The notes under the pieces were generated by a model. That model made no database searches and had not been told where the DNA came from. It saw nothing but the letters and a program-made list of their open reading frames with translations. Shown piece by piece: positions 7,785 through 21,942 of a DNA stretch of 64,000 nt; position 1 is the first letter of the stretch; every line of letters begins with the position of its first letter. This DNA comes from Escherichia coli (GTDB taxonomy: Bacteria; Pseudomonadota; Gammaproteobacteria; Enterobacterales; Enterobacteriaceae): the NCBI RefSeq assembly GCF_965641715.1, contig NZ_OZ282453.1. One strand, written 5' to 3'. The position numbers were made by a program, and so were the translations under genes.

Positions 7785-8108
7785 TTATTCATCTCCCTTT
7801 TGGGTTATGCGGTTAAAGGCGGCAATGATCTTGTCGCGTGCTTTTTCTGCGCCCATAAAACCGATAGATGCGCCGAAAAACGTCACGGCATCTTCAGGAA
7901 CTCCGAAGAAGCGCAACGACCCGGCCACGGCCATGGCAAGAACGCCGCACGCCAGCGATCCCGTTACGGTCTGAACCAGCGTTCGTCCGTCATAAAGACT
8001 CATCAGCGCGGAAATGCTGACTGCCGCGCCTGCTGCATACACCGTTGGCAGGTGGTCAAAGAGCCACGCAATAACCTGCTCTGTGATCCCTGTTTGAATA
8101 GTGCTCAC
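7785..8108 (-). CDS. Holin (class I-like); start proposed at GTG 8108 after GGGGGAG
   Basis: Track ORF 7785-8327 overlaps gene X in another frame; internal GTG at 8108 with upstream Shine-Dalgarno gives a 107-aa product with about three hydrophobic segments. Confidence 0.5.
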   Translation of the reverse strand: MSTIQTGITEQVIAWLFDHLPTVYAAGAAVSISALMSLYDGRTLVQTVTGSLACGVLAMAVAGSLRFFGVPEDAVTFFGASIGFMGAEKARDKIIAAFNRITQKGDE

Positions 8109-8110
8109 TA

Positions 8111-8317
8111 CTACTCCCCCCACAACTGAATCATTTCTCGTTTCTTCTTCTCCGGCTCCGGCATCTCCACGTCCTGCCCGGGGTCCAGAAATACCTGCTG
8201 ACAGAGTCCGGGGTTGGCATCCAGCACCTTTTCGGTGACGCCCTGCGTCGTGCCGTAGTACCGGAAACAGAGCGAATCCACGGTGTCGCCTTCCAGTGCC
8301 TTCACTTTCATCAGCAC
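8111..8317 (-). CDS. Tail protein X-like
   Basis: 68 aa; ...LEGDTVDSLCFRYYG... pattern resembles P2 gpX as I recall it; position between L and holin. Confidence 0.7.
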   Translation of the reverse strand: MLMKVKALEGDTVDSLCFRYYGTTQGVTEKVLDANPGLCQQVFLDPGQDVEMPEPEKKKREMIQLWGE

Positions 8318-8805
8318 AACTCCGCAAAGATTCGCGGTCGTCCCAGAATGTCAGAGATGGCCCAGCTCACATCGCGCCACAAATCCGATGTCTGTATATC
8401 CAGTGCGTCCGCCCGGCGGTCGCCCTTATCCGTTGTGTCCGCATCGCGGTAACGCTCCAGAATCAGGGCGCGTGTGGCGGTATAAACGGCATTGCGCCAG
8501 TGCCAGAGATTGACGCTTTCTCCGTTAATTACGGGTGCCGGAACATCGGCCAGCGTCTGGTGGCCAGCCGCCTGCTGTTCCTGCTGCCACGCTTCCAGCT
8601 CGCGGGTAACGTGTGCCACGGCCCCGGTGGCGGTATGCAGCAGGCGGGAGGTGGTCACACGGCCCGGCAGTCGTATCGCCAGACGCAGCTCACGCAGCAC
8701 AATATCCGGCCAGAATGCGCCCGCTGAAATACGGGTATCACCATCATCGGTATCGGTGATGTCGTCCTCTGCGGGGCCGGGGTTGGTTCTGGCAACCATA
8801 CTCAT
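8311..8805 (-). CDS. Head completion protein gpL-like; start moved to ATG 8805
   Basis: Track ORF 8311-8814 starts at GTG; the ATG at 8805 is preceded by AGGAG; position after M. Confidence 0.7.
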   Translation of the reverse strand: MSMVARTNPGPAEDDITDTDDGDTRISAGAFWPDIVLRELRLAIRLPGRVTTSRLLHTATGAVAHVTRELEAWQQEQQAAGHQTLADVPAPVINGESVNLWHWRNAVYTATRALILERYRDADTTDKGDRRADALDIQTSDLWRDVSWAISDILGRPRIFAELC

Positions 8806-8906
8806 GGGGTTCACTCCTGAAAAAATCGGGCGGTGGGTGCGCGGTGTAAACGGTCACGGAGTCAAACCGGAACACCGTGCACGCCGCCCGCTGACGGGGT
8901 CAGTCG

Positions 8907-9707
8907 TTAAACGCGCTTCGCCTTCTGCGTCGCGGTGGTTTTTCGTGTTGCAGGCTTCCGCGTTGTCTTTTTACTTTTGCTGCTTTCGTCCTGCGCCTGC
9001 TGTGCGCTGGCGTCATCTGGGGCGGCTGCGGAATCGGCTTTTTTCAGGGCGCGGGAAAGGGTTGCAATCTCGCGTTTCACACCTGCGTTCGGGTTCAGGT
9101 GCATCGCTTCGCGCAGCAGCTTCAGTGACAGGGCCATGCTGTCCGCATCGCTCAGGCCACGGCGGGCAAAGGCGCACGCCTTGCATAATTTGGCGCGTAC
9201 TTCGTCCGGCATATCCTGGTCGGTGACAATCTCCCGGAGGGTGTCCAGTGGTTCGATAAAGGCGGACAAATCCGCGTCGGCATCCGTCCCGGCCTGCGTC
9301 AGTACCGGGTTGCAGATTTCTTCGGTCAGCACTGTGGCAGCAGTACGGCCAAAGTTATCCGGCATGATGAGGTTGTGACGGACCACATACGCACCAATAC
9401 GCAATGCCAGCGGAAGATCGCCACAGTCAATCGCCCACACCATCAGCGTGGCAATCACCTCATCCTGCTGCCCGCCGTCAGCCTCCAGCGTTCCTTCAAT
9501 CCAGCCAGAAAAGTCCGGTAACAACTCTTTTTTGATGGCGGCTTTGGCGCTTCTGGCCTGTACGCCCTTAAGTCGGGCCTGTGCCAGACGCAGACGATAC
9601 AGCACCTCTTCATGCGCGGTACGTGCGGCGTGATCCACGCCTTCATTCGCCCGGCCTGCGCGCTGCGCCATCACGTTCTGCCAGTGTTGCTGTGCAGGGG
9701 TAATCAT
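8907..9707 (-). CDS. Terminase small/endonuclease subunit gpM-like
   Basis: 266 aa; position between N and L as in P2. Confidence 0.75.
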   Translation of the reverse strand: MITPAQQHWQNVMAQRAGRANEGVDHAARTAHEEVLYRLRLAQARLKGVQARSAKAAIKKELLPDFSGWIEGTLEADGGQQDEVIATLMVWAIDCGDLPLALRIGAYVVRHNLIMPDNFGRTAATVLTEEICNPVLTQAGTDADADLSAFIEPLDTLREIVTDQDMPDEVRAKLCKACAFARRGLSDADSMALSLKLLREAMHLNPNAGVKREIATLSRALKKADSAAAPDDASAQQAQDESSKSKKTTRKPATRKTTATQKAKRV

Positions 9708-9752
9708 TCTTTCTCTCCGTTACAGGCGGGCATGATGCCCGCCGTGAGTTGA

Positions 9753-10805
9753 TTAGCTGTCGGCGAACTTCAGGCCAGTGACCATCGCGCACTTGCCATA
9801 GTCTTCAACGACATAAGCGTCATTGATGGACTGGTAAGTGGCGATGCGGTTGTATTCCGGCTCGTCTTTCATCAGGCGACGCATTGAGCCTCTCTGCCAG
9901 TAAATTGACAGGTTGTTGAATGAGGTAATCAGCATCGTTGCATCCGGGAAGAACGGCGCAAGGAATACATCCAGCCCGCCAATGGTGCGCGATGACAGGA
10001 TGAGCTGTCCGGCGAGTAATTCCGCATTGGGATTCTGGCCGCTGATGCTGTTCAGAACGGGCAGACGCAGCGAGTTAAACAGGTTGCGCCCCATAATCAC
10101 CACGAGGTCGTCTGCTTCCTTGTGCCATTCATCCAGCAGGGATGAGCGCGCGTCCTGTACGAGTGCATCAGCGTTCGCATACTTACCCGCGTGCGCCACG
10201 GTGTTGTCCATGTTGCGGGAAGTCAGCGTCACGTCATTCATTACGCGTTCACTGGCATCGGTTCTGATGTGCTCCAGCCAGCCCACGTTAACGTCCTGAA
10301 GCAGCTTGTTGGTGCTGAAATTGGATTTTTCCGCGTGTGATGTGCCGTTAAAGCCGATCATGATGCGGTCAAGCGCCACCTGCCGGGCAATCTGTGTGCT
10401 GATGCGCGACTGAAAATCGCTGTGAGCCGCCCAGGCATCAAGCTTCGGATACGAAATAAAGGTGTCGTAGTTCACCTGTTCACACTGGTACTGACGAGCC
10501 TTCATATCGACAGCGTTAATCGGATTACGGCGATCTGTGCCGTCATAACTGGTATTCGTGCGCGCAATCGGCCCGGTGGTGTCCAGGAGAACTTTTTCGC
10601 CTTTCTGGTCAGTTACACCGATTACGTTAATTCTTTTCGTAAATTCGGTACTTTCCTTTGAAGCGTTTTCAAAACGCTGTTGTACCGATGGATTGACGGT
10701 AAATCGCGATACCAGCGCAGAAACCGGGATATTGTTAAGCGACGCCTGCTGCGTCATGTAGCAGCCCAGCTTGTTACGGGCATTATCTGACATCACCAGA
10801 TTCAT
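9753..10805 (-). CDS. Major capsid protein gpN-like
   Basis: 350 aa; strong resemblance to P2 gpN (GFNGTS, NLSIYW regions); position after scaffold. Confidence 0.9.
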   Translation of the reverse strand: MNLVMSDNARNKLGCYMTQQASLNNIPVSALVSRFTVNPSVQQRFENASKESTEFTKRINVIGVTDQKGEKVLLDTTGPIARTNTSYDGTDRRNPINAVDMKARQYQCEQVNYDTFISYPKLDAWAAHSDFQSRISTQIARQVALDRIMIGFNGTSHAEKSNFSTNKLLQDVNVGWLEHIRTDASERVMNDVTLTSRNMDNTVAHAGKYANADALVQDARSSLLDEWHKEADDLVVIMGRNLFNSLRLPVLNSISGQNPNAELLAGQLILSSRTIGGLDVFLAPFFPDATMLITSFNNLSIYWQRGSMRRLMKDEPEYNRIATYQSINDAYVVEDYGKCAMVTGLKFADS

Positions 10806-10828
10806 AAAAATTTTGCTCCTTTGTCTTA

Positions 10829-11665
10829 TCAGAAGTCAGCCAGTTGGTCGGAGGCTGCGCCCGTTGCGGTGAACCGGTTCTGCGGATCGCCGTCCTGCGT
10901 GCGCAGTTTTTCCTTCAGTGCTGTCAGCTCTGTGGTCAGTGACGTGATTTTCTGACGGTCCTGCTTATGGCGGGCTTCCAGTGCATTAAAACGGTCGATA
11001 ATGTCGGCCTGTGACGTTGCGACGCCTTCCACCGCTTCCTGAATACGGGAAAAACTGGCGTCATCCGCTTTGCGGCCACGGCCAATAATTCCCATTACGC
11101 GGTTAAACCACTGGGTGCCTTCTTCCTGGCGTTGTTCTGCCATTTCGATGATTTCAGACTCGATGGCTTCGGAGATAAGCGGAGCCTCACCCTGGACACT
11201 GTTGAATTTCATCACTGCCTGACGTTGCTGTGCCGTGAATTTCAGACGTTCAGTGCCCAGGCTTGCCGGGGTGTCGGTCATCGCCAGCCCGACCAGATAG
11301 GCGCGCCCGTTAACGGAGAACTGCGGGTGCAGTTCGATACTGGAATAAATTTTCTTGCCGTCAGCGACAAGCTTCTTCATGCGCTCGGTCGGTTCGATTT
11401 CTGCATACAGCGCAGTACGCCCGGCCAGCGGACCTTCCGTAATGTCTTCCGTACTCAGTGCGGTGACATCGCCCATTGCGGAAAATTCGCTTGACGGGCA
11501 TGGCGAGAGATAGTGCTCAACGTTCACGCGGGCAGCGTAAACATCCGGGTCGAAGTTCTCAGCAGCTTCACGCAGATGCACCGGACTGATTTCGCGGCCA
11601 TCAACAGTTGATCCGGAGACAGCCACGCGAAACTTTTTGCGTGATGTCTTTTTTTCATTAGCCAT
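10829..11665 (-). CDS. Capsid scaffolding protein gpO-like; start proposed at ATG 11665
   Basis: Track ORF runs to 11698; from MANEKK...FRVAVSGSTVDGREISP it parallels the P2 gpO N-terminus; LVGLAMTDTPASLGTE motif. Confidence 0.85.
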   Translation of the reverse strand: MANEKKTSRKKFRVAVSGSTVDGREISPVHLREAAENFDPDVYAARVNVEHYLSPCPSSEFSAMGDVTALSTEDITEGPLAGRTALYAEIEPTERMKKLVADGKKIYSSIELHPQFSVNGRAYLVGLAMTDTPASLGTERLKFTAQQRQAVMKFNSVQGEAPLISEAIESEIIEMAEQRQEEGTQWFNRVMGIIGRGRKADDASFSRIQEAVEGVATSQADIIDRFNALEARHKQDRQKITSLTTELTALKEKLRTQDGDPQNRFTATGAASDQLADF

Positions 11666-11819
11666 AGTTTTTGCCCCTCTGACTGGTTCTTCAGTCATGA
11701 TGGCAAAGCGTAACAGGCTGATACAAAGGGCTTTTGTTGTAAGAAAATGGCCAGAACAGGGGGTTAAGGAGAACGGTTTCGCGCGCGGGTAATCTTCCTG
11801 TAATTACTCAGGGGGAGCA

Positions 11820-13571
11820 ATGATTCAGGACGCTTTTGTGCGCCAGCGTGCGCGACAACTTTACTGGCAGGGTTATCCGCCCGCTGAAATATCACGTCTG
11901 ATGGGAATAAACCCGAACACGATTTATGCGTGGAAAAAACGCGACCAGTGGGATGAAACGCCACCCGTGCAGCGTGTCACGCAGTCCATCGATGCGCGCC
12001 TCATCCAGCTTACTGAAAAACAGAATAAAACAGGCGGTGACTTTAAGGAAATAGACCTGCTGACCCGGCAGCTTAAAAAACTGCATGATGGCCAGCCGGA
12101 TGCGACGGCCACAGGAAAGAAAGGCCGGGCGAAAAAGCTTAAAAATCATTTCACGCCGGAACAGATTGCCGCACTGCGGGAAAAAATCATCAGCAGGCTG
12201 GAGTGGCATCAGCGGGGCTGGTTTGACTCCCTGACCCTTTGCAGGGAAGCCGGGATACGTAACAGGATGATCCTGAAATCCCGACAGATTGGGGCGACCT
12301 GGTATTTTGCACAGGAAGCACTGCTGATGGCGCTGCGTGACGATGTGGCGCAACCTTACCAGCGTAACCAGATTTTTTTGTCTGCGTCGCGTCGTCAGGC
12401 GTTCCAGTTTAAAAGCATTATTCAGAAGGCTGCATCTGAAGTTGATGTGGAGCTGAAAGGGGGCGATAAAATCATCCTCTCCAACGGCGCAGAGCTGCAT
12501 TTTCTCGGCACTTCTGCTGCGACGGCACAGTCCTACACAGGCAATTTTTATTTTGATGAATTTTTCTGGGTCAGTCGCTTTGCTGAACTGCGCAAGGTGG
12601 CTGGCGCTATGGCAACCCTCAGCGGGCTGCGACGCACCTACTTCTCCACGCCATCAACCGAAACGCACGAGGCATACGTCTACTGGAACGGCGACCGCTG
12701 GAACGAGAAAAAGGCCGCGCATAAACGCCAGCGTTTTTCTGTGGACTGGAAAACGCTGCATAACGGGCTTATCTGCCCCGACCGGACGTGGCGGCAAATT
12801 GTCACGCTGGAAGATGTGGTTAATCACGGCTGGAAACACACCGATATTGATGAAATTCGTGATGAAAACACCGAAGACGAGTTCCGCAATCTCTATATGT
12901 GTGAGTTTGTCCGCGAAGGGGAATCGGCATTTAACCTGAATATCCTGATTGGCTGCGGTGTTGACGGATACGACGACTGGAAAGACTGGAAACCTTTTGC
13001 TCCCCGCCCGATGGGGAATCGTCCGGTATGGATTGGGTATGACGCAAACGGCAGCAGTGGAAACGGCGACAGTGGCGCGGTGTCCGTGGTGGTTCCTCCG
13101 GCTGTTCCTGGTGGCCGTTTTCGAACGGTGGAGACGCGACGCGTTCAGGGGCTGGAGTTTGAAGAACAGGCCAGAGTCATTGAAGAGTTCACGTGTCGCT
13201 ACAACGTGGAACACATCGGCATTGATGTGACGGGCGGGAACGGGGAGGCTGTTTATCAGATAGTGAAACGGTTTTTCCCTGCCGCTATTCCGTACACCTT
13301 CACGCTGTCATCAAAACGGTCGCTGGTACTGAAAATGCTGCAAATAATGCGTGCCGGGCGGTGGGAATACGATCGCGCCGAACGCGAGCTGGTCGCGGCC
13401 TTTAACGCCGTGCGTAAGGTGAAAACACCGGGCGGCTTTATCACTTACGAAACGGACCGCGCGAGGGGGATCAGCCACGGCGACCTTGCGTGGGCAACCA
13501 TGCTTGCTGTCATTAACGAACCAATTGGCGGCGAAGGAGAAAACGAGCGTTTCACGGTTATGGAGTTCTGA
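11820..13571 (+). CDS. Terminase large (ATPase) subunit gpP-like
   Basis: 583 aa; divergent from O as in P2; ATG preceded by GGGGGAG; terminase ATPase region. Confidence 0.9.
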   Translation: MIQDAFVRQRARQLYWQGYPPAEISRLMGINPNTIYAWKKRDQWDETPPVQRVTQSIDARLIQLTEKQNKTGGDFKEIDLLTRQLKKLHDGQPDATATGKKGRAKKLKNHFTPEQIAALREKIISRLEWHQRGWFDSLTLCREAGIRNRMILKSRQIGATWYFAQEALLMALRDDVAQPYQRNQIFLSASRRQAFQFKSIIQKAASEVDVELKGGDKIILSNGAELHFLGTSAATAQSYTGNFYFDEFFWVSRFAELRKVAGAMATLSGLRRTYFSTPSTETHEAYVYWNGDRWNEKKAAHKRQRFSVDWKTLHNGLICPDRTWRQIVTLEDVVNHGWKHTDIDEIRDENTEDEFRNLYMCEFVREGESAFNLNILIGCGVDGYDDWKDWKPFAPRPMGNRPVWIGYDANGSSGNGDSGAVSVVVPPAVPGGRFRTVETRRVQGLEFEEQARVIEEFTCRYNVEHIGIDVTGGNGEAVYQIVKRFFPAAIPYTFTLSSKRSLVLKMLQIMRAGRWEYDRAERELVAAFNAVRKVKTPGGFITYETDRARGISHGDLAWATMLAVINEPIGGEGENERFTVMEF

Positions 13572-14617
13572 TGAGCAGAAAAAATAAAAAAGTGCGCATG
13601 AGTTCACGCATTGATCTCGCTGATGCGCTCAGGAAAGAATCGTCGCTCAGTGCATTCACATTTGATGGTCCTTACCGCCTGACCGGGCATGACCTGCTGG
13701 ACAATATGTACTGTGCTGATAACGGGCGGTGGTATGAAACCCCGGTGGACTGGTACGGTCTGGCAAGAGCCGCCCGGCAAACGTCCTGGCATCAGTCTGC
13801 GCTTTACTTTAAGCGCAATGTATTGCTCGGTTGCTACATCCCGCACCCGCTGCTTTCCCGGCAGGATTTCTCGGCGCTGGCGCTGGACTGGTTTGTGTTC
13901 GGTAACGCATTCCTTGAGCTTCGGAGCAATATGCTCGGCGAACCACTTAAATTACGGCACGCACTGGCGAAATACATGCGACGCGGAAGCGATCTTGAAT
14001 CATGGTGGTATGTGCAGGATGGCAAGGACGCGTTTCAGTTTCGCCCTGGCAAAGTGTGCCACCTGATGAATCCGGACATTAACCAGGAAATTTACGGCAT
14101 GCCGGAATATCTTGGCGCATTACTCTCGGCCAGCCTGTCTCATTCGGCGGACATGTTCAGAAAACTGTACTACGACAATGGATCCCACGCCGGGTGCATC
14201 ATCTACATCGGTGCAGCGCAGGTAAACCGCGAAAGCATGGACTCCCTGAAGGAAACGCTACAGGGTGCGCGTGGTGGTGGTGCATTTAAAAACGTGCTCA
14301 TTCACGCGCCCAACGGGGGCAAAGAAGGTGTGCAAATTTTGCCGTTCCAGCAGATCACCGCAAAGGATGAGTTCATGAATGTTAAGGCGGCATCCCGTGA
14401 TGATGTGCTGGCTGCGCACCGCGTTCCGCCGCAACTGATGGGGGCGATGCCGGGCGAAAAAAGTGCGTTTGGTGATGTGGAGAAGGCAGCGCGGGTTTAC
14501 GCAATTAACGAGCTGATGCCCGTCATGGAGGCCATGAAGCATATCAATGACTGGCTTGGCGAAGAGGTGATCCGCTTTAACCCTTACGCACTGCTGGACA
14601 CCCAGCCCACATCCTGA
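13571..14617 (+). CDS. Portal protein gpQ-like
   Basis: 348 aa; start overlaps the P stop (ATGA); P2 portal-like. Confidence 0.9.
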   Translation: MSRKNKKVRMSSRIDLADALRKESSLSAFTFDGPYRLTGHDLLDNMYCADNGRWYETPVDWYGLARAARQTSWHQSALYFKRNVLLGCYIPHPLLSRQDFSALALDWFVFGNAFLELRSNMLGEPLKLRHALAKYMRRGSDLESWWYVQDGKDAFQFRPGKVCHLMNPDINQEIYGMPEYLGALLSASLSHSADMFRKLYYDNGSHAGCIIYIGAAQVNRESMDSLKETLQGARGGGAFKNVLIHAPNGGKEGVQILPFQQITAKDEFMNVKAASRDDVLAAHRVPPQLMGAMPGEKSAFGDVEKAARVYAINELMPVMEAMKHINDWLGEEVIRFNPYALLDTQPTS

Positions 14618-15141
14618 CGCGCTTCGCTTGTCTGCTGCTTCGCCGGGGCATAAAAAATTTATGCCCCGACTCTCCAGCTCCTGTATCAATCAGATAATTT
14701 CACGACGTCTTCCAGCTTATCGCCATCATCGACGGTCAGGCTCTTACGCAATCCCACCGCGTTGACTGCATGTTCTTGCCGCCTCAGTGCGATTTTGACG
14801 GCCTTATCTGTCACCCCATCAAATCAAAAGCCCTCACGCCTTTTTCACGCTCAGTGTGAGAAATACAGCCATTCTGTTGTGTCGCTGCGACATCGTTCAG
14901 GGAATGCTATTTACCCCCTGAAACGCGGGCTGTTCCCCCGTCACCTGCGCGCAGAAAAAACGCGTTTTTTTGTGCACGCACGGATCCTTGACGGATCCAG
15001 TCGCCACGCGGGCCGGAAGGGTAAAAAGTTGTTCAAAAAAATTGTGCAAATTTGTGCACTATTGTGCGGTGTATAAAATGAAAATATGGCGGTGTTATTA
15101 CTGCCCAACAAGCCGTTATACTTACGTTATGGGCGTGCATA
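14618..15141. other. Non-coding interval where cos and the packaging site are expected by P2 synteny; cos itself not identified
   Basis: Lies between portal stop and phd start; contains inverted repeat GGGGCATAAA/TTTATGCCCC (14645-14667), palindromes CTGCGCGCAG and A6CGCGT6 (14945-14970), two GGATCC sites 11 bp apart and TTGTGC repeats. Confidence 0.3.
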
Positions 15142-15498
15142 ATGGAAATGAATATGAAAACTGTAACTGATGATGAATTTCGTGAGAACCTGAGTGAAAT
15201 TCTGGATTACCTTTCTTCCGGTGGCAGTGTCGTTATCACGGCGCAGGGAGGGAAGGATGTTGTTCTTGCTGGTTCTGATCTTAGTCCTGAAATACGGGCT
15301 GTCCTTGGCAAAACCAAAAAACTGCGGGATCAAATAAACAAAATGAAGCAACCACTCTTAATAAATGCAGTGAGAGATCTGGAAAAACGTCATCCAGCTC
15401 TTGTCGCACAGAGAAAAAAAGGATTGTCTTTTGAAGATGCAATGAAGCGTACAAGAGAAAAACATGCGGATATCATTAAAAAGCTTGAGGATAACTGA
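15142..15498 (+). CDS. phd: Phd/YefM-family antitoxin (118 aa, C-terminally extended)
   Basis: N-terminus ...KTVTDDEFRENLSEILDYLSSGGSVVITAQGGKDVVLAGSD has the Phd/YefM pattern; stop overlaps the doc start (ATGA at 15498). Confidence 0.7.
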   Translation: MEMNMKTVTDDEFRENLSEILDYLSSGGSVVITAQGGKDVVLAGSDLSPEIRAVLGKTKKLRDQINKMKQPLLINAVRDLEKRHPALVAQRKKGLSFEDAMKRTREKHADIIKKLEDN

Positions 15499-15905
15499 TG
15501 GACATAGTGTTTTTGTCAAAAGAACAAGTAGAACGTATCCATGCTGAAACTTTACCCCAGAGCGGAAATGCCAATGACGGGCTACTTGAAGGTGCTTTAA
15601 ATCGCGTCAGGACACTACACTACTATGAAGGGGTTGATGATATTCATGCTCTGGCTGCTATGTATTTGATTGGTATAGCCAAGGCTCATGCCTTTCATGA
15701 TGGGAATAAACGCACAGCTTTTCAGGCTGCATCAATATTTTTAATGATGAACTCTTCCGAACTTTCAAACTCCCTGCTGCTGGTTAAATTAACGGTGTTT
15801 TCAGCAATGGGGATAGCTACCCTTGAGGAAGTTACCTTTGCTTTGAAATTGCTGTCTGATTATGGCAATGAATTAATCAGCGACTACGAAGAAGATTATA
15901 TTTAA
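15498..15905 (+). CDS. doc: Doc-family toxin (Fic fold)
   Basis: 135 aa; Fic/Doc signature HAFHDGNKRTA present; coupled to the upstream antitoxin. Confidence 0.85.
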   Translation: MDIVFLSKEQVERIHAETLPQSGNANDGLLEGALNRVRTLHYYEGVDDIHALAAMYLIGIAKAHAFHDGNKRTAFQAASIFLMMNSSELSNSLLLVKLTVFSAMGIATLEEVTFALKLLSDYGNELISDYEEDYI

Positions 15906-16071
15906 TGCTGGCATACTCTGTCGTGTTAAGACAACAGCCTTTGCGGAGACAGGGCAGGGTGCCAGACTTGCCCGCAGCGCGTCTGACATGAGCAGTTATT
16001 CATCTTTTTTATTGTTTTTCTCCATGCAGGGCGACAGTGCGCCCCGATAAAATTAAAAGCCGTCAAATTCG

Positions 16072-16407
16072 TCATTCATGCGTTTTTTCTTCATGGTCTG
16101 TCACTTCTCTCCTGATAACTTCATTGCACAAATCAACGCACTCATTGCAGATGTAAACAGACGGTCCGGCAATCACCTTTGTGACTTCGTACTGGGATTT
16201 ATTGCAGAAGCTGCAATAAATCGTCTCCTCACCTGAAGTCCATGTTTTGCTGGTTTCGCCAGACATCAGTTGTTTGAGGTCTTTTTCACGACGAAGAACT
16301 ATCTGGCCACATTCAGCTATTTTTTGGATGTTGACATTTTCTTCTTTCGCCAGCGCTTCCATCCGCTCAATCAGTCGCTGCGCTTTTTCTCTGTCAATGC
16401 GTTGCAT
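16072..16407 (-). CDS. Small protein with C-terminal ClpX-type C4 zinc-binding domain
   Basis: 111 aa; C-terminus [36 protein letters not shown] matches the ClpX N-domain (LYCSFCGKSQHEV...YICDECVDLCNDII); N-terminal half predicted helical/charged. Confidence 0.7.
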
Positions 16408-16470
16408 TGTGTCCCCCTTGTTTATGTTCCCGGGTTAAAGTCATCAGGGCGGATGCGCCCTGATGTTGTG

Positions 16471-16782
16471 TTATTCGGGAAATAACGCCCGGATATTTCC
16501 GGCCATCTGACTGGTTATCTGTGCGGTTGATACTGGCTGTGACGCGGGGCGTTCTGTCCTGGTTTGTGTCACTGATAACGCTTCATCATCAGCCCATGCA
16601 GCCAGTCGGTAAGCCTCTGCCGGATTCATTTTCAGAAGTGCCAGCCCGGCCAGAAAAGCCACGCGTTGGCCGCTTTTGCGCGCTTCTGGTGTAAGGCTGT
16701 CCAGCCAGGCGCATGCTTCACCTTCGTTCTTGACGGCGGCGGGCTTCAGATAGAAACTTATCCGTCTGGTTGGAGTCGTCAT
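16471..16782 (-). CDS. parR: ParR-like DNA-binding partition adaptor; start at ATG 16782
   Basis: 103 aa from MTTPTRRISFYLKPAAV...; aligns with what I recall of R1 ParR (RRTIAFKLNPDV...LDS...AGLAL); ATG lies 5 nt after the parM stop, with AGGAG upstream. Confidence 0.55.
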   Translation of the reverse strand: MTTPTRRISFYLKPAAVKNEGEACAWLDSLTPEARKSGQRVAFLAGLALLKMNPAEAYRLAAWADDEALSVTQTRTERPASQPVSTAQITSQMAGNIRALFPE

Positions 16783-16786
16783 TGGT

Positions 16787-17746
16787 TTACTCCTTGTCCA
16801 TTGCGTACAGCCCATTAACCAGAGCAAACTGTGGCACCCCGTCCGCGATGAAAGTCGCATTAACTCCGCAGGCTTCGCGGATAGCGGGTGCCACAATCTC
16901 CGCCCCGCCACCGACAACCATCACCCGCCCGTAACCCGAAAAAACCGCCAGCGCGCGGATCACGCGTTGTTTCAGTGTTTCTTCCTTTTCACGAATAACC
17001 GCCATCAGGCTGGCGTAATGCGCGTCATTGTGGATGTGCTGGCGCAACCAGGCTTCATCATGGCGATGTTCGATAATGGTATTGGCGATGTGGTGACTGA
17101 TACGCATACCGTTAGTGGCCATCACCGACAGTACGGCATCGGCCATCAGGGAAACGCCTACGTGTGGATCGCAAAACACCTGGCTGATACCTGCCAGTTG
17201 CCCCTGAACCTTTGCCACATCCAGTGTGGTTCCGCCCAAATCCACAATCAGCAGGGATTCAAGCGGACTCATGTCAGCCAGTGCTTTAAAGCCAGCCGGA
17301 ATGGATTCAGGCATAACCCGTACGTTACGGATAGTGAATGTTTCGCCGTTCTGGTACTCCACCGGGCGCATAACGTTCGCTTTTTTGCGGCTGATGTTGG
17401 CCATGTCCGGCTGTGCGTTTGTGTCGAAATACTCGCTCAATGGCAGGGTGACAACCACATCCACCTCCTGTGGCGTGATGCCTGATTTGACCAGCGCGTG
17501 ATGAATGGCAATGACATTCACATCGCTGTACTGGTATTGCGTGTCGGTCGTCTGGACAAAGCGATCGCTGACCGGATCAAAACCATAGCGCACGCCATCA
17601 AGCATGTAGTTCGCGGGCTGCGAGCCACCGAACGGCGCAGACCATTCCGACTTGAAGCTGTTCGGGCTGATGGCGTTGCGGCGTTCGCCGTTCTCAGTCC
17701 ATGCCAGCTTGATGTTGGTGGAGCCGTCGTCGATACAAATTTTCAT
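16787..17746 (-). CDS. parM: ParM/StbA actin-like partition ATPase
   Basis: 319 aa; MKICIDDGSTNIKL..., ISPNSF, YSDVNV, KKAN, FTI.NV.VMPESIPAG, DLGGTTLD and VMV.GGGAE blocks parallel plasmid R1 ParM. Confidence 0.9.
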   Translation of the reverse strand: MKICIDDGSTNIKLAWTENGERRNAISPNSFKSEWSAPFGGSQPANYMLDGVRYGFDPVSDRFVQTTDTQYQYSDVNVIAIHHALVKSGITPQEVDVVVTLPLSEYFDTNAQPDMANISRKKANVMRPVEYQNGETFTIRNVRVMPESIPAGFKALADMSPLESLLIVDLGGTTLDVAKVQGQLAGISQVFCDPHVGVSLMADAVLSVMATNGMRISHHIANTIIEHRHDEAWLRQHIHNDAHYASLMAVIREKEETLKQRVIRALAVFSGYGRVMVVGGGAEIVAPAIREACGVNATFIADGVPQFALVNGLYAMDKE

Positions 17747-17783
17747 GTCGCTTTTCCTTATGTTGATTAATTAATCGTTTACA

Positions 17784-17890
17784 GGATTTTTAAATCCCGC
17801 TTTTGCCTGTTTTGTGCGCGCTTCATATATCGCGGCACGTTTTTTGCTCATTTATGGGATTTGTGAATCCCGTTTCTGTCTGTTTTTTGT
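17784..17890. repeat. Two imperfect 33-bp direct repeats, each with a GGGATT/AATCCC hairpin and T-run, upstream of parM and overlapping the 3' end of gene A
   Basis: GGATTTTTAAATCCCGCTTTTGCCTGTTTTGTG (17784-17816) and GGATTTGTGAATCCCGTTTCTGTCTGTTTTTTGT (17857-17890). Confidence 0.5.
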
Positions 17891-20645
17891 TTCCACTGGT
17901 CAGGCCACCCCGCAGCAGGTCTGCTTTGCGGCTGGCGCGTTCAGTGGTTTCACTGATTCTCTGTGCGTGCTCTGCGTCGCGGATGGCGCGCAGCATGTCA
18001 GAAAGCACGGTAACGGGTGTTTTCATGGTGTTCTGGTCCTGCTGAAGTGTGGATGCCAGGCGTGCGGCGGCTTCAGGGTCTGATGCCCCCAGCTGTGCCA
18101 GATAGCTGGCGACCGGGTTATGGCGGATCTCCGTGCTGCTTACGCCATGATTACGGCTCAGGCGCTGCCAGAGCTGCGTGATTCGGCTGTCCGGGCGGGT
18201 ATCCGGTTTGCGTACAATTTCAAATCCCTGCGGTGCAATGATGCTGCCGTCAACGTACAGACTGCCGCCCCGTAACAGGTGCTGCATCTGTTGTTCACCG
18301 ATATGCAGGCCGAGAGATTCAGCAGACTCCCGCCATTCTTTAGCGAGTAATTCGTGGTTATCAGGCAAAGGCCGTGGCTGTTTGCGGCTCTGTGTCCAGC
18401 TCTGCATTTCATCACTGCTGTTTTTTGCCTGTTTGTCACGAAGCGAACGCATCAGCGCCCGGCGTTCGTGCCGTTTCAGTGAGCGCATCCATTCGTTCAC
18501 GTCAACGCCGTCAGGAAGCTGCGGCCACGGTGCTGGCCGTTCTTTCGACTGTTCTGTCCCGCTGTTGCCTGTTTCCTGTACACGGGGACAGTTATTGCCA
18601 CGAGTCCAAGGGGCGGCAGGGCCGCCCTGAAGGTCAAAACCATTTTCGCGGGCGCTGTCTTCCGTTTCCGGTTTACGTCTTACCAGTTTCCAGTTATCCG
18701 GATGCGTGCACACACGGGAGGATTCCCCGATGAGTGGTGACCAGATCCCGTAAATCTGTACGCTCTGTTCGCCGTAATCATTCAGCTCATCTGCGAGGTC
18801 GTAGGCGGTGCGAATCAGGTAGTCTTTGCGTGGAACAAGTACGCCGCCCTGTTTTTCAATGTAGGTGGCAAAACACCCGGCATCGGCGGCAGCGAGTACC
18901 GCATCCATTGCGTCATCTTTCAGTCGTTGCGGGCCTTCCGGGTTGCGTGCCATCTGGCTGGCAAGGCGGCGCAGTTCACGCCACACCTGACGGGAGGGGA
19001 TGCCAAAGAACTGGAACTGGCGGACCCGATGAAGGCGCGCCCAGCCGATGGCGCGCTCCACACTCTCGGCCATTGATTTTCCGGTTTCGTGGTCAACGCG
19101 TGGCTTGCCCGTTTTCGGGTCGATGCCATCCACGGCGCGGCTGTCCAGGTTCTTTCCGATGTAGGTCGCGATATAGCTGGTTGGTGTGCCTTTTGAGCCG
19201 TCGACATACTCCGCCTTAAAGCGCGGAGTAATATCATTGCCCAGCTCGTGGCGGTCTTCCTGAATGGCAATATCGCGGGTGATGGCCACGATGCTGTCGA
19301 TTTCTTCCGGATGAGCAAAGACCATCATATGCCAGTGCACGGTGCCGTCATGGTGAGGCTCCACCGTGCGGATGCCATACCAGCGAAGACCGTCGCGGTT
19401 CAGTTTTTTGCGGACCGCCGCAAAAAACGTGTTAACCAGGTAATCGCTGGAGTCGCGCATGGTGGCCCCGTTCCATTTGGGATTCGGATGACCGTTCTCT
19501 GTTGTGGCGTGGTATTTTGACGGGCAGGTGACAGTCAGAAACACCGCTTTGTCGCCACGGGCTTCGGCCAGAAGTTCCAGCCCCTTCATGGTGGCCATCA
19601 TTTCTGCCTTACGGTGAACCGGGTTACTTACTCCCGCGTAATACACCGTCTCGAGATCAATCGTGAACCCGTCTTCATTTTCCAGCATGAAACTTTTCAG
19701 GAAATCGCGTGTTTTCTCGCGCTGTGCGCGAAACTCGCTTAACGCGTCCTGGCTCAGATAGGGCGATGTTTTTCTGGAAACCAGACAGGCGGCGCGGAGT
19801 TGTTCTTCTCTCCACTCGCAACGTAACAGCCACAGTTTGCGTTTCCACCATTCTGCACAGGTCAGGCGAAGGATTGCGCCCGGCAGCAGCTCCGTGTCCG
19901 GTTCGTTCCTCTGGTCTTTGTCTGTTGTCAGTGCGTCATAATGTGGAGGCATGGCGTGCAGGTGTAACGCCATGCGGGCCAGCATCTGATACGCCTTCAG
20001 CGTTACATCCATGGTCAGTTCGCCATCGGTCGCGCCAAAGCCATCGCAGAGTTTTTCGAAGGTGCTGCTGAACATCGCCGCCGTCATGGTGGCCAGTGTC
20101 TGTATCTGGTGTTTGTTGAGCTGCGGCAGGTAAAGCAAATCGTCCAGGCGTTCGCGTCCGGCAAGGGAGCGATAACCCTGTGTCAGCCAGCGGTGATCGG
20201 TGCGCTCCAGACGTTCGAATATTTTGCGCAGGTTTCCGCGCGCGTAGCGTTCAGCCTGCCAGCTCTTTTTGCCTTTCTGACGATCGGCTTCCTGTTTTTT
20301 GCGCAGGAAGGAGAGGTGGCGAATAAGCGGATCGCGCAGATAGGACGGCAGCAGGCGCAGCGAGGCCATGGCTTCATCCACCGCGCCGCGTGCCTGTTTT
20401 CTGGCATCTCCTGCCAGTGTGATGGTTTTGTCCTGTTTTTCCTGTGCGTCCAGGCTTTTATTAATCAGGTTGCCCAGCGGCGTTGCGGAGAACGCCGCAT
20501 CAGCCATTTCCTGGCGGTGCTCGTTCTCTACCCGGTAGGCATCCAGCCAGGAGGAAAGCGCGGATTCAGGAGCGGGGATCCCCGTTCCTTCACGCCCCAC
20601 TGCGTGGCGCGGTTGTTGCCAGTCCCTGATGTACTCTGCCGTCAT
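17823..20645 (-). CDS. Replication initiation protein (P2 gpA-like rolling-circle endonuclease)
   Basis: 940 aa; P2 A position; HUH-like motif ...HHDGTVHWHMMVF...; translationally coupled to the upstream 121-aa ORF. Confidence 0.65.
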   Translation of the reverse strand: MTAEYIRDWQQPRHAVGREGTGIPAPESALSSWLDAYRVENEHRQEMADAAFSATPLGNLINKSLDAQEKQDKTITLAGDARKQARGAVDEAMASLRLLPSYLRDPLIRHLSFLRKKQEADRQKGKKSWQAERYARGNLRKIFERLERTDHRWLTQGYRSLAGRERLDDLLYLPQLNKHQIQTLATMTAAMFSSTFEKLCDGFGATDGELTMDVTLKAYQMLARMALHLHAMPPHYDALTTDKDQRNEPDTELLPGAILRLTCAEWWKRKLWLLRCEWREEQLRAACLVSRKTSPYLSQDALSEFRAQREKTRDFLKSFMLENEDGFTIDLETVYYAGVSNPVHRKAEMMATMKGLELLAEARGDKAVFLTVTCPSKYHATTENGHPNPKWNGATMRDSSDYLVNTFFAAVRKKLNRDGLRWYGIRTVEPHHDGTVHWHMMVFAHPEEIDSIVAITRDIAIQEDRHELGNDITPRFKAEYVDGSKGTPTSYIATYIGKNLDSRAVDGIDPKTGKPRVDHETGKSMAESVERAIGWARLHRVRQFQFFGIPSRQVWRELRRLASQMARNPEGPQRLKDDAMDAVLAAADAGCFATYIEKQGGVLVPRKDYLIRTAYDLADELNDYGEQSVQIYGIWSPLIGESSRVCTHPDNWKLVRRKPETEDSARENGFDLQGGPAAPWTRGNNCPRVQETGNSGTEQSKERPAPWPQLPDGVDVNEWMRSLKRHERRALMRSLRDKQAKNSSDEMQSWTQSRKQPRPLPDNHELLAKEWRESAESLGLHIGEQQMQHLLRGGSLYVDGSIIAPQGFEIVRKPDTRPDSRITQLWQRLSRNHGVSSTEIRHNPVASYLAQLGASDPEAAARLASTLQQDQNTMKTPVTVLSDMLRAIRDAEHAQRISETTERASRKADLLRGGLTSGNKKQTETGFTNPINEQKTCRDI

Positions 20646-20651
20646 AGTGAT

Positions 20652-21017
20652 TTACTTCGTCATGCCATTCAGGGTGTCGCGGCAGACTGTAGCCAGCCGC
20701 TGAATTTCCAGCACGGTGTCTTCTGTGTCGGCATGGCGATGTGTGATGCGGATGCTGTCGGCAATCACATCGACGATTGCAGAGGATGGGCGCTGGTAAA
20801 TGCCAATAACGGACGGGGTGCCACCTTCAATGCGGTAAAGCCTGTAATTTCCCTCGTGGCTGTCAATCATGTAGCGACCATCAATAACAATCTTTCCGTC
20901 AGCGAGCTGCGGTACAGGCAGGGATTTCAGGTACATGTCATAACGATCACGCACGCGAGCGGCAAGATCACGTTCTGTGTTGAGCAGGTATTCAAGAAAG
21001 TCGTTGGCGAGAATCAT
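20652..21017 (-). CDS. Hypothetical early protein
   Basis: 121-aa ORF with ATG and upstream AGAGGA; ends 7 nt before the A start. Confidence 0.5.
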   Translation of the reverse strand: MILANDFLEYLLNTERDLAARVRDRYDMYLKSLPVPQLADGKIVIDGRYMIDSHEGNYRLYRIEGGTPSVIGIYQRPSSAIVDVIADSIRITHRHADTEDTVLEIQRLATVCRDTLNGMTK

Positions 21018-21089
21018 TGCGGCAATCCTCTTGTTACAGATGTGCGAAGGCCTCCCGCCGCAAGGTGCAGGAAAGGCCCGGAACAGGAG

Positions 21090-21320
21090 TTAATGGAGTT
21101 TGTTTTGCTGCTGGATGAGCTGTTGAAGCTCGTGCAGATCATCCGCCAGATAGCTGAAAACAGAGGCGGAATAAATGTTTGATAGTGCGTGGCTGCGCTC
21201 ATGCAGCATATTGATGTGCATGATTTGCGCGACGCGTGATGCGCGGGAAAGTCTGCGGTTGATTTCAGTCTGGATGTGACGACGCTCCGCGATAGCGCGG
21301 TGTGGTTTGCGGTTTGCCAT
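21090..21320 (-). CDS. Hypothetical basic small protein
   Basis: 76-aa ORF (MANRKPHRAIAERR...); preferred over the overlapping low-complexity 205-aa ORF in another frame. Confidence 0.4.
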   Translation of the reverse strand: MANRKPHRAIAERRHIQTEINRRLSRASRVAQIMHINMLHERSHALSNIYSASVFSYLADDLHELQQLIQQQNKLH

Positions 21321-21642
21321 GGTGTGGCCCCTTGTGTAGTAAGTTGTGAAAACTCACCATCCAGAGCTGCGAAACTGTGGGTGGCGAGACGTACGAGGTT
21401 CGCAGTACCGGCTACACAAGAACCCGGCCCGACCGAAGTCGGCCCCGTACGCCCCGCCATAATTCTGACGCGAAAAAAACGTGGCAATACAGTACGCACA
21501 AAAAAACCGCTGGCGCGGTTGTGCGCTTGTGTAGTCAGCAGGCTGCGAAACCCGGCACCCGTTTTGTGAGGTGCAGCGGAAATGTAACCTGACTGATTGC
21601 GGCATGGCAAGCGGTTTTTTTGTGTGTGCATGTTCTGGTTTC

Positions 21643-21942
21643 TTAGTGGTTCAGAAAAAAATCAAAAACCTTGTCAATGCGTTGCAGCAGCTCTTGCTGT
21701 ATTGCTTCCGGCGTTTCCGGTTCGCCTGGCGCCTCCAACGTCGCGCAGAAATCCTCGATTTCATGACGGAGCGTCAGGCGAATGGCGAGAGGTGTGGTTC
21801 TGGCGTGCTCCAGCTCATCCAGCAGCGCCAGCACAGCAGACGGCGAGAGCATTGCGCGAAACGCCAGTAATTTTTGAGGCGTTGCCATTCGTTGCAGGTC
21901 AGTCGCCAGTTCGCGTAATTCCTGGTGGTTGATGGCGCTCAT
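21643..21942 (-). CDS. Hypothetical early protein
   Basis: 99-aa ORF; start overlaps the stop of the upstream ORF. Confidence 0.5.
   Translation of the reverse strand: MSAINHQELRELATDLQRMATPQKLLAFRAMLSPSAVLALLDELEHARTTPLAIRLTLRHEIEDFCATLEAPGEPETPEAIQQELLQRIDKVFDFFLNH

Follow-up and report, generated by a model that had tools for sequence, protein, structure and literature searches.

A P88-like Escherichia coli prophage replication endonuclease of normal length, with variable modules at both ends

The stretch of Escherichia coli DNA that we analysed (64,000 nucleotides, hereafter the window) carries on its minus strand a long replication gene, rep, with two partition genes downstream. The rep open reading frame begins with ATG and ends with TGA, and RefSeq has the same 2823-nt coding sequence, labelled 'replication endonuclease'. 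The gene and the landmarks of its catalytic region are as follows.

17823..20645, minus strand: rep, gpA-family HUH rolling-circle replication initiator ('replication endonuclease'), 940 amino acids plus stop (open reading frame, Pfam, PHROG, RefSeq)
19137..20111, minus strand: Pfam Phage_GPA catalytic region (PF05840), amino acids 179-503
19317..19337, minus strand: HUH motif HWHMMVF, amino acids 437-443 (motif position and alignment)
19149..19175, minus strand: active-site tyrosine pair YIATYIGKN, amino acids 491-499 (alignment)

The family assignment is secure. Rep matches Pfam Phage_GPA over amino acids 179-503 with an E-value of 6e-131 (436.7 bits against a cut-off of 31.4), covering the full profile (1-321), and phrog_91, 'nicking at origin of replication', matches amino acids 3-940 (E=1e-275). 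A preliminary description of this DNA had proposed a rolling-circle initiator on the basis of an HUH-like motif, HWHMMVF, and this is borne out by the Pfam match and by alignment, in which H437, W438 and H439 are invariant in P88, SW5, Cartapus, P2, 186 and PM2. Y491 and Y495 (YxxxY) are likewise invariant and align with Y452 and Y456 of the 763-amino-acid P2-type protein; P2 A has a two-tyrosine active site in which the role of the pair has been described (cited in PMC3986222). An AlphaFold2 model of Rep has pLDDT values mostly of 85-95 over amino acids 100-660. When the full-length model was searched against the PDB, only weak matches to HUH enzymes were recovered (Helitron, the AAV Rep origin-binding domain OBD and the IS608/ISDra2 TnpA proteins; probability about 0.9, E above 0.04). 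These modelled similarities are consistent with the gpA family and say little about the extension discussed below.

The same description had called attention to the length of the protein, putting P2 gpA at about 180 residues shorter. This estimate was accurate, as Rep exceeds the P2-type A protein by 177 residues (940 versus 763 amino acids). Among the other comparators, whose lengths were taken from public records, 186 A has 694, Cartapus gpA 804, SW5 878 and PM2 P12 634 amino acids. The implication that the length is unusual does not hold. The Rep proteins of P88 (KP063541, AIZ95124.1) and of the Xuanwuvirus P884B11 have the same 940 residues, are 96.6% and 98.1% identical to the window protein at 100% coverage, differ from it by point differences only, and have the same neighbours (a 121-amino-acid open reading frame upstream, ParM and ParR downstream). 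Database clusters of 946, 941 and 940 amino acids hold 16,881, 3,025 and 910 members, and the rep region is found in 1,145 of 5,426 complete E. coli genomes at a coverage of at least 80%. Thus, the 940-amino-acid protein is an ordinary, already annotated rolling-circle initiator of a P88-like (P2-family) E. coli prophage, and 940 residues is the normal length for this lineage.

It might still be asked whether so long a reading frame could be an artefact, namely a fusion or pseudogene that arose when a stop codon was lost, or a gene with a mis-called start. Relatives with broken or shortened versions do exist, including phage 503458, where the gene is annotated in pieces, and a number of partial or frameshifted variants. 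However, we regard such an artefact as extremely improbable, given that a product of 940-946 amino acids recurs in more than 20,000 sequences and that P88 is reported to be inducible and to lyse E. coli strains (PMC5285337, PMC6456863). The rep start codon also lies just 6 nt past the stop of the upstream gene, and most of Rep is modelled with confidence.

The more useful question is where the additional residues reside. Alignment to the P2 and 186 A proteins, suggested in the preliminary description as a way to locate an insertion, divides the excess over P2-type A into 44 residues in an N-terminal variable module, 14 in the catalytic core and 119 after a candidate origin within the gene. Therefore, no single inserted domain accounts for the 177 extra residues; Rep is longer than the P2 protein because both of its ends are variable, swappable modules. 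The regions outside the catalytic landmarks are as follows.

20292..20645, minus strand: N-terminal variable module, amino acids 1 to about 118, contributing a net 44 residues to the excess over P2-type A (alignments)
18585..18614, minus strand: candidate replication origin (nick region) GCCCCTTGGACTCGTGGCAATAACTGTCCC, encoding A678-P687; also a recombination junction (homology to the P2 and 186 sites)
18036..18377, minus strand: conserved C-terminal domain of long gpA proteins, amino acids about 757-870, predicted as two helices, a three-stranded sheet, then helices
17913..18017, minus strand: lineage-specific long helix PVTVLSDMLRAIRDAEHAQRISETTERASRKADLL, amino acids 877-911, predicted as a single helix
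17826..17912, minus strand: cargo-dependent terminal peptide, amino acids 912-940, putative read-through into the region upstream of the par cassette (homology break and model)

We propose that Rep is built from three independently recombining modules: the N-terminal module (amino acids 1 to about 118), the catalytic core (about 120-687) and a post-origin tail (688-940). At the N-terminal boundary, the nucleotide identity of rep to two relatives, L009 and L008, rises from about 50% before amino acid 120 or so to 83-99% after it. In other E. coli copies the N-terminal allele is a different one, giving proteins of 946 or 941 amino acids, or the cargo-dependent last residues differ. The helices modelled in the N-terminal module have low to moderate confidence. 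No significant Pfam match was obtained with amino acids 1-180, 681-940 or 831-940 (the top one, a Death domain at E=0.018, falls under its cut-off), an NCBIfam search of the extra sequence found no family, a PHROGs search of it found only Rep's own families, and a sequence search of solved structures found no relative (best E=0.73).

Rep shares with P2 gpA (PF05840) the HUH motif, the tyrosine pair and an in-gene origin that encodes a ..NNC.. peptide, at 30-32% identity over amino acids 77-800. The P2-type A protein lacks about 44 N-terminal and about 119 post-origin residues of Rep, and in it the C-terminal domain aligns only to about amino acid 826 of Rep. The 186 A protein belongs to the same family, is 35.6% identical over amino acids 173-739 and has an annotated rep_origin in the homologous motif, but nearly all of the post-origin tail is absent from it (net 177 amino acids).

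The candidate origin is the hinge of this arrangement. The 30-nt block is homologous to the P2 sequence GCGCCTCGGAGTCCTGTCAA (L003:3229-3248), which lies inside P2 gene A, and to the annotated 186 rep_origin; the location of the P2 origin inside gene A has been described previously (PMC3986222). The nick position is assigned by homology, from a GenBank annotation and a secondary citation. The block is identical in six enterobacterial lineages whose flanking sequences differ by 40-50%. Since the peptide it encodes sits in a segment predicted to be disordered (amino acids 662-706) and yet is invariant, conservation there is likely exerted at the DNA level. Given the homology with P2 gpA, Rep most likely nicks one strand at this origin inside its own coding sequence. 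By analogy with the family, the protein would then link to the 5' end through one of its two tyrosines (Y491 or Y495), and the nicked strand would prime rolling-circle replication by host enzymes.

Beyond the origin, the tail would begin with a disordered linker, whose invariant residues reflect the DNA-level constraint of the origin, and continue into the folded C-terminal domain and then the lineage-specific helix. The first 60 residues of the domain are modelled with pLDDT above 90. The preliminary description had suggested that the extra sequence may be an added domain, and this was right in part: the C-terminal excess does contain a predicted folded domain, but the excess as a whole is split over three regions. 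Moreover, the domain is not new in Rep, since it recurs in other long gpA proteins. SW5 (878 amino acids) and P0132 (841 amino acids) carry the common pattern LGxxLSxxQLxxLLRGxxLxxxG...IRxxPVGxYxxML, whereas both lack the helix at amino acids 877-911 and the par-linked end. Neither a Pfam family nor a structural neighbour was found for the domain. An exhaustive profile-free search of 1.84 billion representatives with the 251-amino-acid tail returned 26 matches; those retrieved were gpA C-termini or fragments plus the repetitive protein P0141 (the 2,998-amino-acid P0131 was not among them), and these gave no evidence that the tail occurs in another family.

Apart from P88-like proteins, the helix at amino acids 877-911 was found just in a Hafnia relative, and it is kept beside four different downstream cargos. 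In three pairwise comparisons with the diverged cargo variants L013-L015 (12-20 substitutions each), its dN/dS is 0.17-0.28; against Hafnia the value is 0.87. The helix thus appears, from these substitution patterns, to be under purifying selection. A relationship between the helix and the Ead/Ea22-like open reading frame at 21643-21942 was considered and rejected, as BLASTP gave no alignment. As for function, our guess would be that the domain and helix assist without taking part in catalysis, for instance in oligomerisation or in recruiting a host replication factor.

A different view of this region would be that DNA downstream of the origin is retained mainly for roles in cis (initiator sites, lagging-strand priming signals), with the protein beyond about amino acid 690 being largely dispensable. 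The invariance of the origin peptide within a disordered segment would fit such DNA-level conservation, the alleles of the tail follow the DNA downstream of them and not the core, and some close relatives have only about 75 residues after the origin (P0104 totals 761 amino acids). Even so, we consider this view rather unlikely, because the C-terminal domain has a high-confidence predicted fold and keeps 25-35% protein identity in distant relatives, and because dN/dS in informative pairwise comparisons is low for amino acids 777-856 (0.06-0.25) as well as for the helix.

The final part of the tail cannot be understood apart from the DNA that follows it, which includes the features below.

17848..17889, minus strand: repeat copy 1, inside the 3' end of rep, with palindrome CGGGATTCACAAATCC at 17857-17872
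17775..17816, minus strand: repeat copy 2, between the rep stop codon and the start of parM, with palindrome CGGGATTTAAAAATCC at 17784-17799
16787..17746, minus strand: parM, actin-like partition ATPase, 319 amino acids, first cargo gene after rep (Pfam StbA_N PF06406/PF21523 ParM_N; RefSeq ParM)
16471..16782, minus strand: parR/stbB-type partition adaptor, 103 amino acids (Pfam Plasmid_stab_B PF10784, E=1.6e-24)

The Pfam matches of ParM (PF06406 and PF21523) have E-values of 4e-82 (StbA_N) and 3.5e-68 (ParM_N), and the ParM and ParR/StbB adaptor genes form one operon, as in type II ParMRC systems. The two 42-nt direct repeats are 79% identical and lie 73 bp apart. As the preliminary description had noted, the 3' end of rep overlaps the repeats, with one complete copy inside the reading frame. 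Each copy contains the palindrome CGGGATTnnnnAATCC, for which there are five strand matches in the window against 0.49 expected; four of the five are at the two repeats, and none of 100 shuffles reached five. In the Hafnia locus the palindrome arms are conserved, while the centres and the rep frame vary. No sigma-70 consensus promoter was found. Like the R1/NR1 (stbAB-type) ParMRC loci, the window has direct repeats immediately upstream of a ParM and StbB/ParR operon, and in a related IncL/M plasmid locus the repeats upstream of parM are also 73 bp apart. The window differs in that there are no more than two units, each 42 nt long and containing a palindrome of 16 bp, and in that one of the units falls inside the preceding gene; these would be putative ParR sites. 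By their arrangement, the repeats upstream of parM are centromere-like and constitute a candidate parC.

An accessory-gene (defence) hotspot between gpA and gpQ of P2-like phages has already been described (Rousset et al. 2022, PMC9122126); the genes that lie between those for the replication endonuclease and the portal differ among otherwise similar phages. Catalogues of P2-like prophages already contain roughly 8,000-18,000 of them (PMC9122126; bioRxiv 10.64898/2026.02.27.708500). Five different cargos were seen at this location among close relatives. The cargos include ParMR in the window, L010 and L011; an AAA ATPase with an S8 peptidase in L013; three unknown genes in L014; a methyltransferase with AAA_15/21 in L015; and others in L008 and L009. 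In contrast with the hotspot as described, the left boundary of the variable DNA in the P88-like lineage lies inside the rep reading frame, after codon 911, and the last Rep residues are thus encoded by whichever cargo is present. In the passages of PMC9122126 that mention gpA, portal or tin, we saw no description of a boundary inside rep.

Homology among the cargo variants stops after codon 911, and the alternative endings give Rep proteins of 910, 916, 940 and 943 amino acids. In L011 and L010, one-nucleotide indels shift the frame of the last 29 codons although the underlying DNA is conserved, and frameshifted or truncated Rep variants are also represented by P0017 and P0032. Amino acids 912-940 are predicted to be disordered (pLDDT below 50). 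On this modelling and comparative evidence, the last 29 residues do not form a domain, although they are intact in the large 940-946-amino-acid clusters and some weak function is conceivable. Their existence would be due solely to the position of the left hotspot edge inside the reading frame; since the cargo here is a ParM/ParR cassette, translation runs through the first palindromic, centromere-like repeat until it meets a stop.

An alternative is that the C-terminal excess was acquired in one piece, as a functional domain linking replication to ParMRC partition, for instance through contacts with ParR, ParM or the repeats. In the phage collection, ParM follows at about 80 bp in all 14 records that have the last 81 residues; the remaining ParM matches there are just the two phage D6 records, which lack the tail. 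The Hafnia locus and the L011 recombinant have both tail and ParM. However, the tail through amino acid 911 also occurs beside the three ParM-less cargos of L013, L014 and L015, and the ParM-linked part comprises only the last 29 residues, with their predicted disorder and broken frames. A coupling domain of this kind therefore seems improbable to us. A link between ParM and the entire 81-residue end, as the phage collection had seemed to indicate, was rejected for amino acids 860-911 in view of the variants with other cargos; only amino acids 912-940 are ParM-linked.

Taken together, the locus very probably encodes a gpA-type HUH initiator of a P88-like (Xuanwuvirus, Peduoviridae) prophage that has normal length, three recombining modules and a cargo-derived end. 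In related genomes, the origin block is precisely where ancestry changes, and a second change follows codon 911, within the reading frame at the hotspot edge. Before the 30-nt block, L011 shares 88-99% identity with Cartapus; past it, the identity is 94-100% to the window. L009 and L008 switch ancestry at the block and again near amino acid 120. We offer, as a speculation that we hold with little confidence, that the origin block may be a fixed, nick-initiated recombination junction at which P2-family phages could swap everything downstream (the Rep tail plus the gpA-gpQ cargo) as a unit, independently of the core. In the same speculative vein, the centromere-like repeat within the rep frame of ParMRC phages could make rep expression and partition complex formation interfere.

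The question of length itself matters little, as this is a known and routinely annotated endonuclease that is typical of P88-like phages in size. What is gained is a map of a common E. coli prophage gene that separates its origin, its catalytic parts and its swappable parts, and that cautions against reading the last 29 residues as a domain. The points at which ancestry switches could help to set hotspot boundaries in surveys of defence cargo among P2-like phages. If interference between rep and partition does occur, it might matter for a plasmid-like state of the phage.

The replication initiator gene, rep, is an ordinary and already annotated gene within a P88-like prophage (genus Xuanwuvirus, family Peduoviridae). 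At this position, RefSeq annotates a ‘replication endonuclease’ of 2823 nt, and the 4.7-kb surroundings of rep are present at a coverage of at least 80% in 1,145 of 5,426 complete E. coli genomes. The ‘replication protein’ of phage P88 is also 940 aa, is 96.6% identical to the initiator (Rep) over its full length and has the same neighbours, and that of phage P884B11 is 98.1% identical. Furthermore, clusters in a large protein collection contain 16,881 sequences at 946 aa, 3,025 at 941 aa and 910 at 940 aa. Given these relatives, the RefSeq annotation and the clusters, 940 aa is the normal length in the P88-like subfamily, the very outcome that the preliminary description had set as its refutation. 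An E. coli ‘plasmid’ record (L017, NZ_CP148288.1, circular, 34,461 bp) is itself a complete P88-like phage genome carrying integrase, cox, a 946-aa Rep, ParM, ParR, and head and tail genes. Given its ParMR cassette, this record might represent a prophage in a plasmid-like state, or simply an excised phage circle captured by the assembly.

The gene and its catalytic motifs are as follows.

17823-20645, minus strand: rep, an ORF called from ATG to TGA, 940 aa
aa 437-443 of Rep: HWHMMVF motif
aa 491-499 of Rep: tyrosine pair, YIATYIGKN

The first motif agrees with the HUH-like assignment made in the preliminary description. Residues 179-503 match Pfam Phage_GPA (PF05840, E=6e-131), and the alignment to PHROG 91 (‘nicking at origin of replication’, profile length 852) spans aa 3-940. 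The family match, the motifs and an origin homologue can be read directly, whereas the activity of Rep we infer from family membership: most likely, the protein would nick the origin in its own gene, attach via Y491 or Y495 and then start rolling-circle replication.

Comparator lengths were taken from public records. The early estimate that Rep exceeds P2 A by about 180 aa was accurate, as the P2-type protein has 763 aa and the measured excess is 177 aa. Rep exceeds 186 A (694 aa) by 246 aa, 177 of them beyond aa 687, and other proteins compared are Cartapus gpA (804 aa), SW5 gpA (878 aa) and PM2 P12 (634 aa). Alignment to P2 and 186 A, meant to locate one insertion, revealed no single inserted domain. 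Instead, the net excess over P2-type A is spread along the protein: +44 up to aa 178, +14 between aa 179 and 687, and +119 beyond. The suggestion of an added domain therefore holds in part: the C-terminal excess includes a predicted domain, but the excess falls in three regions and this domain is common to long gpA proteins.

The tail of Rep (aa 690-940) gave only 26 hits among 1.84 billion representative proteins, and those retrieved were gpA C-termini or fragments and one repetitive protein. When modelled alone, the tail has a mean pLDDT of 82, and the following parts can be distinguished.

aa ~757-870: C-terminal domain common to long gpA proteins (SW5 and comparison proteins P0132, P0139 and P0145)
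aa 877-911: predicted single long helix, found only in P88-like proteins and one Hafnia relative
aa 915-940: predicted disordered end

The domain, which also occurs in short called ORFs that are possibly fragments, is predicted with high confidence (pLDDT above 90 in its first 60 residues) to form two helices, a three-stranded sheet and then more helices. No family for it was found in Pfam, and a structure search with the model found no structural neighbour. Compared with the diverged cargo variants L013-L015, aa 877-911 have dN/dS values of 0.17-0.28 (12-20 substitutions per comparison), which suggests that the helix is a translated and constrained part of Rep. Since tail alleles are compatible with different cores, and much shorter tails occur in close relatives (P0104, 761 aa), our guess is that the domain and helix might have an accessory, non-catalytic role. 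In some prophages (L012:4001-4273 and L015), rep is largely absent or cut. The 90-aa ORF P0136, adjoining methyltransferase and AAA_15/21 cargo, retains only the helix of Rep (PVTVLSDMLRAIRD...), fused to new sequence.

The tail begins just beyond the candidate origin.

18585-18614, minus strand: candidate origin, GCCCCTTGGACTCGTGGCAATAACTGTCCC, encoding A678-P687, by homology to the P2/186 site

The sequence GCGCCTCGGAGTCCTGTCAA, which we take to be the P2 origin, is present in P2-type gene A, and the rep_origin annotated in the 186 record lies in a motif homologous to the P2 site. PMC3986222 places the P2 ori in gene A, citing the study that mapped it. By the same homology, the putative nick position would lie within 18585-18614. 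This 30-nt block is identical, with zero synonymous changes, in the window, Cartapus, the Hafnia locus and three further lineages, whereas its flanks differ by 40-50% among them. Because of this invariance, and because the encoded peptide lies within aa 662-706, where pLDDT is below 50 in the AlphaFold2 model, the simplest reading is a constraint on the DNA rather than on the protein.

Sliding DNA identity along rep locates the block as the exact ancestry switch point in three independent recombinant genes (L011, L009 and L008). For the L011 gene (925 aa), identity to Cartapus is 88-99% as far as the block and drops to about 49% beyond it, whereas identity to the window rises from 47-72% to 94-100% at the same point. 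The L009 and L008 genes (879 and 830 aa) match the window at 83-99% identity from aa ~120 to 690. Their identity to it is only 34-77% downstream of the block and about 50% upstream of aa ~120, which marks a second switch near codon 120. Divergence starts immediately 3′ of ...AACTGTCCC. Judging from these sharp switches, rep is built of three independently recombining parts: an N-terminal module, a catalytic core and the tail beyond the origin.

As the preliminary description proposed, the 3′ end of rep overlaps repeats.

17848-17889: 42-nt direct repeat copy inside the rep 3′ end
17775-17816: 42-nt direct repeat copy between rep and the following gene (76-bp gap)

The palindrome CGGGATTnnnnAATCC within them has five strand matches in the 64-kb window (0.49 expected), four at the two repeats. 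The units immediately precede parM (Pfam StbA_N, ParM_N) and a gene of the StbB/ParR family, and the arms CGGGATT and AATCC are kept in Hafnia while the centres vary. Direct repeats also precede related parM genes in an IncL/M plasmid (L019:1102-1272; spacing 72-73 bp, as in the window) and phage-plasmid D6 (L018:715-884), although their sequences are unrelated to ours. No consensus promoter was found at the repeats upstream of parM. Given their position, the kept arms and these related loci, the repeats fit a putative parC-like centromere or operator.

Other ORFs flank this region.

15142-15905, plus strand: antitoxin-like 118-aa ORF and 135-aa ORF
16072-16407, minus strand: 111-aa protein with a ClpX-type C4 zinc finger
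21014-21631, minus strand: 205-aa ORF overlapping, in another frame, a 76-aa ‘derepression protein’ ORF (21090-21320)

The first two sets (15142-16407) are more cargo downstream of parMR, replaced in E. coli CH468 by an HTH protein and a PIN-domain protein. The 118-aa and 135-aa ORFs presumably match the PhdYeFM-like and Fic genes that are called in L009 at the equivalent position. Positions 15023-15067, within the AT-rich gap that precedes the 15142 ORF, hold 2-3 copies of a short AAAAAATTGTGCA-like tandem repeat. The 205-aa ORF may be spurious; L014 has a called gene of the same length.

After a common ...AEHAQRI(S/N)ETT, close relatives of Rep have at least four different endings, each paired with different downstream cargo.

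940 aa: ParM and ParR (window, Hafnia, L011)
916 aa: AAA ATPase and S8 peptidase
910 aa: three unknown genes, opposite strand
943-aa type: methyltransferase and AAA_15/21 protein

The 916-aa Rep and its hotspot cargo occur in a P88-like prophage in L013 (6431-9751). ParM is present in 14 of 14 phage records that have the 81-aa end; the proposal that this whole end is ParM-linked was rejected, since the cargo variants link only the last 29 residues. Homology among the variants includes many synonymous differences and ends after codon 911. Under the 29 subsequent codons of the ParM-type ending, the DNA shows strong conservation that extends to the Hafnia locus, while the rep frame over it is shifted by one-nucleotide indels in L011 and Hafnia, and the E. 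coli variants P0017 and P0032 are frameshifted or truncated. The last 29 residues are thus best read as incidental translation of the par cassette upstream region.

The gpA-gpQ region, between the replication endonuclease and portal genes, has been described in P2-like phages as a hotspot for accessory and defence genes, and in the passages of that account that we consulted we found no mention of a left boundary inside rep in the P88-like lineage (PMC9122126). In the alignments, this boundary falls inside the rep ORF in that lineage. With three recombinant lineages supporting the breakpoint at the origin block and four supporting the hotspot edge inside the ORF, we regard these breakpoints as a modest side observation on a gene that is otherwise ordinary.
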